From NCBI GenBank assembly GCA_949948835.1, contig CATLHF010000005.1, positions 30,245-94,244 of the forward strand: DNA of 64,000 nt. The letters run 5' to 3'. Each line of letters begins with the position of its first letter. Position 1 is the stretch's first letter. A model generated the notes under the pieces. The model searched no databases. It was not told the origin of the DNA and worked only from the letters and a program-made list of their open reading frames with translations. The translations under genes and the position numbers were made by a program. Positions 59,960 to 60,830 of the stretch are shown one piece after another. The stretch comes from an uncultured Clostridia bacterium. GTDB taxonomy: Bacteria > Bacillota > Clostridia > TANB77 > CAG-508.

Positions 59960-60721
59960 GTTATAGTTCTCTACTAAGTTTTGATATGATATAATAATCA
60001 AAATAAAATATATATTCATAAAGTAGTTATAGTTCCCTACTAAGTTTTGATATGATATAATTAAAGAAATTTGGATTTAATGAAAGCGACAGTTATAGTT
60101 CCCTACTAAGTTTTGATATGATATAATTATAAATCCACAAGGTCAAGCTATTAAGTAGTTATAGTTCCCTACTAAGTTTTGATATGATATAATAGACGAC
60201 GTGATATGATTAGAAGATTAGCAGTTATAGTTCCCTACTAAGTTTTGATATGATATAATGAAAGATTGTATCATTTGACTATGTGGATTGTTATAGTTCC
60301 CTACTAAGTTTTGATATGATATAATACTACTCATAGTATCACAAGCATTAACAAAGTTATAGTTCCCTACTAAGTTTTGATATGATATAATAATTATGTG
60401 TAATATATTACACATAATCCCGTTATAGTTCCCTACTAAGTTTTGATATGATATAATAAAACTATTAATTGAATTGGACGACAAAAGGTTATAGTTCCCT
60501 ACTAAGTTTTGATATGATATAATAAAAACAATCTTATTTCCTCCCTCCAACAAGTTATAGTTCCCTACTAAGTTTTGATATGATATAATACATTTGCTGA
60601 GAATATGACAGACATTAAAGTTATAGTTCCCTACTAAGTTTTGATATGATATAATAGAATTAAATTATCTTGTGAAGTAAACTTCGTTATAGTTCCCTAC
60701 TAAGTTTTGATATGATATAAT
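59960..60721 (+). CRISPR. CRISPR array with 12 repeats of 36 bp and 11 spacers of 30 bp. The repeat is GTTATAGTTCCCTACTAAGTTTTGATATGATATAAT.
   Basis: Period 66 bp. The first repeat (59960) is degenerate (C11T). Every repeat ends in TGATATAAT, an extended -10 element oriented toward cas2. Confidence 0.95.
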
Positions 60722-60772
60722 AGGTAAGTCTATAGCTCTTGATATTTGTGCTTTTTAAGGTTATATCTAAAT

Positions 60773-60830
60773 AAAAAATGAAGATTGTTTATAAAAATCA
60801 TATCTTCATTTTTTATTTTTTTCTGTTGTT
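60773..60830. terminator. Bidirectional terminator between the CRISPR array and cas2.
   Basis: AAAAAATGAAGAT-loop-ATCTTCATTTTTT followed by TTTTTTTCTG. Confidence 0.6.

Follow-up and report, generated by a model that had tools for sequence, protein, structure and literature searches.

A CRISPR array that points against its own cas operon raises the question of where its crRNAs start and what drives their transcription. Such an array lies in the 64,000-nt stretch of DNA analyzed here (the window), which comes from an uncultured, spore-forming, low-GC Clostridia bacterium. The locus is very probably a Neisseria-type II-C CRISPR-Cas9 system, in which each repeat promotes its own crRNA toward cas2.

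The array occupies positions 59960-60721 of the window and is composed of 12 repeats of 36 bp and 11 spacers of 30 bp, all unique, with a period of exactly 66 bp. On the plus strand, which is the crRNA sense, the repeat unit is GTTATAGTTCCCTACTAAGTTTTGATATGATATAAT. It matches the N. meningitidis II-C repeat at 22 of 36 positions, in agreement with the resemblance pointed out in the original prediction. A degenerate repeat had also been placed at the cas-distal end (59960). This terminal copy (59960-59995, plus strand), presumably the oldest, is indeed the only one that deviates, by a single C-to-T change at repeat position 11 (window 59970), and its final TGATATAAT is intact. The oldest spacer, next to it (59996-60025, AATCAAAATAAAATATATATTCATAAAGTA), has a G+C content of 10%, versus 23-37% in the other spacers, and may have decayed together with the terminal repeat. 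Spacer 7 (AATTATGTGTAATATATTACACATAATCCC, 60392-60421) holds a perfect 26-nt palindrome, ATTATGTGTAAT-AT-ATTACACATAAT. Its source was presumably a palindromic site, for example an operator or a terminator.

Three cas genes follow the array on the minus strand. The cas2 gene (60831-61154) is recognized by the NCBIfam profile TIGR01573 (3.4e-26), cas1 of the type II NMENI subtype (61147-62049) by TIGR03639 (cas1_NMENI, 7.2e-90) and cas9 (62053-64000) by TIGR01865 (2.7e-132). Only the 3' 1.9 kb of cas9, encoding the C-terminal 644 aa, is inside the window, and the gene starts ~1.26 kb past the window end. The complete gene was obtained from a second MAG of the same genome (GCA_948680345.1, contig CAPPNL010000001.1; hereafter L001), retrieved by an exact Cas1 protein match, where a window position x corresponds to L001 position 72050 - x. 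There, cas9 spans 6788-9997 and encodes 1069 aa. The L001 gene table and NCBIfam show cas9, cas1 and cas2 as the only cas genes, with neither csn2 nor cas4, and the locus is thus of type II-C, as had been predicted. Full-length matches of this Cas9 to solved Cas9 structures (~1055-1095 aa) include 6jdq and 8uza (Nme1Cas9 and GeoCas9), and its identity to the Neisseria and Pasteurellaceae Cas9s is 38-40%. On these grounds, the protein falls in the compact II-C lineage.

In L001, the gene upstream of cas9 encodes an AIPR-domain protein, and cas2 is followed by the array and then dnaX. The AIPR gene is part of a defence island (L001:1-6155, outside the window; gene and Pfam table), which further encodes a DpnII-like restriction enzyme, an Mrr-like nuclease, several N6/N4 and D12 methyltransferases, a MazG-like protein and an HTH regulator. 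On the other side, the cas-distal array end directly adjoins the gene for the small SRP RNA (ffs, 59723-59819, minus strand; 49 bits in Rfam) with its promoter TTGCTA-17-TATAAT (59845-59873, minus strand). Left of the array, ffs sits upstream of dnaX-ybaB-recR. Since ffs adjoins the array end, the CRISPR-cas locus and the defence island border a conserved housekeeping cluster.

A spacer search, suggested as a check on the original prediction, was run against phage records and IMG/VR and gave no protospacer. The whole array had only weak matches, straddling repeat/spacer borders, among 50,697 phage records. Exact 22-24-mers from six of the 11 spacers had zero matches in IMG/VR; no PAM is derivable. 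Self-targets of the real spacers were not found in the window or in L001. The exact repeat had no match among metagenome contigs, and a degenerate repeat pattern retrieved 45 further related arrays from metagenomes.

For comparison, GTDB species genomes were searched with a profile of 14 Cas9s, and the best 80 loci were kept, with Cas9 identities from 79% down to 37%. The taxa among them include Neisseria, Pasteurellaceae, Clostridium and Patescibacteria. Downstream of cas2, 66 of these 80 loci have an array whose 36-bp repeats recur every 66 bp, and every one of these 66 related arrays is inverted relative to cas9.

The transcribed strand is fixed by the tracrRNA. A search for it upstream of cas9, beyond the window, had been suggested, and its gene is found there, at L001:6627-6715, ~70 bp ahead of cas9 and on the same strand. 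The anti-repeat (ATTATATCATATCAAAACTTAGTAGGTTACTATAAT, L001:6627-6661, cas9 strand) agrees at 33 of 36 positions with the reverse complement of the plus-strand repeat and is followed on its 3' side by AAACTACGAGTGCGAAGT and a G+C-rich terminator hairpin. Because the anti-repeat is complementary to the plus-strand repeat, the crRNA strand is the window plus strand, opposite to the cas operon. The array is therefore transcribed toward cas2, the direction given in the original prediction. When linked in one construct, repeat and anti-repeat fold into a 34-bp duplex with a 2-nt internal loop (-65 kcal/mol, z = -13). A tracrRNA upstream of cas9 is present in all relatives examined. Its TTGAC-17-TAnnAT promoter is invariant in 15 loci, its terminator hairpin is kept in 11 close relatives by compensatory changes (three pairs with double changes), and the anti-repeat co-varies with each locus's own repeat. 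A search with Rfam at relaxed thresholds, over window positions 56000-64000 and the L001 tracrRNA region, returned no CRISPR or tracrRNA family, only the SRP RNA.

Minus-strand transcription of the array, co-directional with cas9-cas1-cas2 as in type II-A, deserves practically no credence. It would reproduce the commonest type II-A arrangement, seen also in one related locus (L030), but the repeat would then be identical, not complementary, to the tracrRNA anti-repeat, a terminator hairpin stands between cas2 and the array, and no -10 element faces that way within the repeat.

The full tracrRNA gene (L001:6573-6715, ~1.3-1.5 kb past the right end of the window) comprises a TTGACA-17-TAATAT promoter, a 5' hairpin, a 36-nt anti-repeat and the terminator. 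The 5' hairpin (ATGCATATA...TATATGCAT) is absent from close relatives. Part of the anti-repeat (L001:6627-6635, opposite strand; also in the related loci L003-L029) is a perfect complement of the repeat -10, so that the tracrRNA gene contains an intact antisense TGATATAAT. This copy faces away from cas9, and the promoter and start region of the tracrRNA overlap with it. In contrast, anti-repeats of the Neisseria type have a mismatch at this place (ATTGTTGCA vs. ATTGTAGCA), which would remove the T at -12.

With the plus strand as the transcribed strand, the end of the repeat becomes the element of interest. The claim that every repeat carries an extended -10 holds for all 12 copies, each of which ends in TGATATAAT (its last 9 nt). 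The first of these elements is at 59987-59995, the others follow every 66 bp, and the cas-proximal one is at 60713-60721 (plus strand). In the 64-kb window, TGNTATAAT occurs 17 times, against ~8.9 expected, and 12 of the 17 occurrences are repeat ends. The -35 position of the repeat reads TTCCCT, a poor match. A transcription start is predicted ~6-8 nt into the following spacer. For comparison, transcription in N. meningitidis starts at the sixth nucleotide of each spacer (PMC12477760).

A conservation profile was taken over 40 distinct repeats from the 66 related loci. Positions 28-29 are TG in 39 of 40 repeats, position 30 is free (A19, C13, G5, T3) and positions 31-32 are TA in all 40. Position 33 is T or C and co-varies with position 4. 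The end of the repeat is again nearly fixed, with A at position 34 (37/40), A at position 35 (40/40) and T at position 36 (39/40). Judged from these aligned repeats, the resulting profile, TG-n-TA-n-A-A-T, is the information profile of an extended -10 element. Pairing with the tracrRNA cannot fix the identities of these bases, because the anti-repeat co-varies with the repeat.

[quoted passage not shown] The 3' end of the repeat is indeed leader-proximal and partly palindromic with the 5' end, as the co-variation of positions 4 and 33 indicates. However, the TG at positions 28-29 lies outside this terminal palindrome, and T36, which faces G1, breaks its symmetry, so the palindrome does not fully explain the conservation of the -10 and leaves these bases unaccounted for. 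The terminal inverted repeat takes in the final 7 nt of the unit, which also lie beside the leader, so that some of their conservation could serve Cas1-Cas2.

The cas-distal ends of the related arrays bear on the same point. Among the 49 arrays with both ends within the contig, the outermost cas-distal repeat is degenerate in 36, and TGnTAnnAT is retained in all 49. The mismatches in these 49 repeats number 190 at positions 1-24 versus 3 at positions 25-36. Recognition by Cas1-Cas2 would not account for an element retained in decayed repeats where no integration occurs. The retained 3' element is most simply explained if it serves to express the first spacer, as no integration takes place at this end and the segment is trimmed from the mature crRNA. 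In addition, a promoter-only remnant, 28-32 nt upstream and thus one spacer length out, was found in 5 of 48 related arrays, versus 0 of 240 out-of-register controls.

The other part of the alternative, a promoter in the cas-distal flank, has a candidate in the window. An extended -10-like 9-mer, TGTTAATAT, is located at 59930-59938 (plus strand), 21 nt upstream of the first repeat, and could add an external promoter. Since pairing of anti-repeat and repeat extends over all 36 nt, processing of a long transcript by RNase III is also feasible. Yet the 9-mer is not conserved in the flanks of the relatives, and the experimental precedent favors internal starts (PMC12477760, PMC5965381). On the whole, a single pre-crRNA with a Cas1-Cas2 role for TGATATAAT is an improbable account. 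The 21-nt spacing of TGTTAATAT differs from the 28-32 nt of the promoter-only remnants in related arrays, and the 9-mer may be due to chance or be a remnant of an older out-of-register unit. A truncated regulatory guide, formed by the 21 nt between TGTTAATAT and repeat 1, was considered and rejected, the best match in the window and L001 being an 11-nt chance match.

TGnTATAAT is thus best read as a promoter in every repeat, as had been proposed. The 40-repeat profile and the retention in decayed terminal repeats both support this reading, and experimental precedent comes from N. meningitidis, in which promoters embedded in the repeats were demonstrated, and from C. jejuni, in which such promoters were observed (PMC5965381, PMC12477760). 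For the Clostridia, small-RNA sequencing of the C. cellulolyticum II-C locus expressed in E. coli revealed array transcription antisense to cas (PMC7038990). The terminal 9 nt of that repeat are also extended -10-like, and its tracrRNA lies upstream of the cas genes (PMC7038990).

Two related loci depart from the common layout. A Negativicutes MAG (L030:10380-10860, Cas9 43% identical) has the only related array that is co-oriented with cas9. Its repeats (GTTTTAGCTCCC...GGCATTAAC) are without a -10, and a TATAAT is found in the leader instead. This locus is a natural counter-example that fits the rule. In Thermoflavimicrobium daqui (L076), two arrays flank the cas operon, one upstream of cas9 (5285-5583) and one downstream of cas2 (10507-11069). 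Both are oriented such that transcription runs toward the cas genes.

Promoters within the repeats also have to be considered together with the end at which the array grows. Acquisition polarity was read from two close relatives, L014 (Cas9 77% identical) and L093, with an identical repeat and an identical cas2-proximal flank. Their arrays have 10 cas-distal spacers in common, with two internal insertions/deletions, and carry two and five unique spacers, respectively, at the cas2-proximal end. As they share the cas-distal part and differ in the cas2-proximal part, the arrays grow beside cas2, at the transcriptionally downstream end. The cas-distal site of the degenerate repeat in the window agrees with growth at the cas2 end. 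In N. meningitidis, it is likewise at the leader end that new spacers have been detected (PMC12477760).

The flank at this end, the acquisition leader, is ~47 bp long (60722-60768, plus strand) and is followed by a hairpin (60769-60827) built of an A-run, GAAGAT, a loop, ATCTTC and a T-run. Positions 60769-60818 fold into a 17-bp stem, with a GAAGAT/ATCTTC core extended by pairing of the A-run and T-run, and more T residues come after it. The whole flank folds with a z-score of -3.7 relative to shuffled sequences. A simple terminator scan did not detect the hairpin, because its stem has two G-C pairs. It stands between the convergent array and cas operon, and essentially every related locus has a hairpin in this position. 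From its sequence and position, the structure looks like a bidirectional intrinsic terminator. The bidirectional hairpin that had been described as separating the array from cas2 (60773-60830) is therefore present at approximately these coordinates.

The leader carries AGGT beside the repeat, followed by CTATAGC (60730-60736) in place of the subfamily motif CTATAAC. In an alignment of 18 subfamily loci, the distance between last repeat and terminator is ~45-50 bp, the part near the repeat is gapless and AGGT-like bases are found beside the repeat. The CTATAAC core is located at +9 to +15, at a fixed offset, with T46, T48 and A49 invariant in the 18 loci. CTATAAC is the reverse complement of the first 7 nt of the repeat. 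In more distant relatives, the terminator is located almost directly 3' of the repeat. The combination AGGT-N4-CTATAAC is conserved in ~25 loci of the Clostridia subfamily, whereas more distant II-C loci lack it.

The leader also contains two repeat-like strings, GTCTATAGCTCTTGATAT (60728-60745) and GGTTATATC (60759-60767). The original prediction had noticed such stretches (60728-60747 and 60756-60775) and considered them a tracrRNA anti-repeat or a decayed repeat. The strings are present, but neither interpretation stands, and both are very unlikely. GTCTATAGCTC and TTGATAT do resemble the two repeat ends, and the tracrRNA of C. jejuni lies between cas2 and the array. This position is not used at the present locus: the complete tracrRNA, with promoter, 33/36 anti-repeat and terminator, is located upstream of cas9, here and in all relatives examined. 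As a decayed repeat, the stretch would be off the 66-bp register, for it begins 6 nt past the last repeat and not 30 nt, and in the 18 relatives the core CTATAAC, whose offset is fixed, runs in the sense opposite to the repeat start. The strings look like repeats in the same sense because CTATAG is palindromic in this genome. A local hairpin with GGTTATA is not conserved either.

A structured small RNA, running from the promoter of the last repeat across the leader, was also considered and rejected, as the CUAUAGC...GGUUAUA hairpin seen here is not conserved in the 18 loci. RNAalifold predicted no pairs in the leader alignment of these loci.

CTATAAC itself, conserved at a fixed offset in the alignment, is best regarded as a leader motif, possibly one that anchors integration. 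A more specific version of this idea is speculative and rather unlikely: AGGT-N4-CTATAAC, fixed 8 nt from the repeat, would be an element specific to II-C that anchors the leader and guides Cas1-Cas2 to the transcriptionally downstream array end, and, as a related point, the antisense TGATATAAT would be a divergent promoter that tunes tracrRNA levels.

The following model of the locus is proposed. The elements are arranged as tracrRNA, cas9, cas1, cas2, bidirectional terminator-like hairpin, leader of ~47 bp and array, the last of these running opposite to the cas operon. The TGATATAAT of each repeat, which lacks a good -35, would recruit a start ~6-8 nt into the next 30-bp spacer, in the direction of cas2. 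We infer that crRNA 5' ends are thereby generated by initiation, not by processing, and that each crRNA would consist of a guide of ~23-25 nt and then the repeat. Read-through from the array would be stopped at the hairpin (60769-60827). The tracrRNA would be transcribed from its own conserved TTGAC-17-TAnnAT promoter and would pair with the repeat over 36 nt; the crRNA/tracrRNA duplex would then be loaded into Cas9, with RNase III probably cutting the 3' side. New spacers would enter at the cas2-proximal repeat, the downstream end for transcription. Acquisition at this end would cost no expression, because every unit has its own promoter.

The closest parallel in layout is found in N. meningitidis 8013 (Zhang et al. 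2013, as cited in PMC5965381 and PMC12477760). There, too, the operon is cas9-cas1-cas2 without a fourth cas gene, and the array, with repeats of 36 bp and spacers of 30 bp, runs opposite to it; the extended -10 forms the last 9 nt of each repeat, the leader or acquisition end is beside cas2 and the gap between cas2 and the array holds a terminator hairpin. The present locus differs in its -10, which is the full consensus TATAAT instead of TACAAT, and in its host, a Gram-positive spore-former. Its tracrRNA is on the cas9 strand, whereas the Neisseria and Pasteurellaceae loci examined have it upstream, on the strand opposite to cas9. Last repeat and terminator are separated here by ~47 bp, including the CTATAAC-type motif, whereas the Neisseria hairpin comes almost directly after the repeat.

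With C. cellulolyticum H10 (CcCas9, PMC7038990), the locus shares a Clostridia host, a tracrRNA upstream of the cas genes, an array opposite to cas, a repeat whose last 9 nt resemble an extended -10 and a compact Cas9 of ~1000-1070 aa. The Cas9 lineage and the repeat are different, and CcCas9 is not among the best 80 loci. The small RNAs of C. cellulolyticum have been sequenced (locus in E. coli), whereas the present locus is known from sequence alone. C. jejuni likewise has promoters within the repeats and crRNA 5' ends formed by initiation (Dugar et al. 2013, as cited in PMC5965381), but its Cas9 is smaller and its repeat different. All features of the locus are covered by the II-C precedents of N. 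meningitidis, C. jejuni and C. cellulolyticum, and the differences are minor.

The locus leaves the current understanding of type II-C systems unchanged. The comparison with related loci allows arrays of this kind to be recognized from sequence only, by the TG-n-TA-n-AAT profile of 40 repeats, the retention of the element in 49 of 49 terminal repeats and its absence in a co-oriented array. In practical terms, a full guide set, consisting of crRNA repeat, tracrRNA and orientation, is defined for a 1069-aa Cas9. For the biology of the family, the locus adds a Gram-positive gut anaerobe to the natural cases of the Neisseria-type solution, with a repeat that would be its own promoter, and this would let an array grow at an end far from any external promoter.
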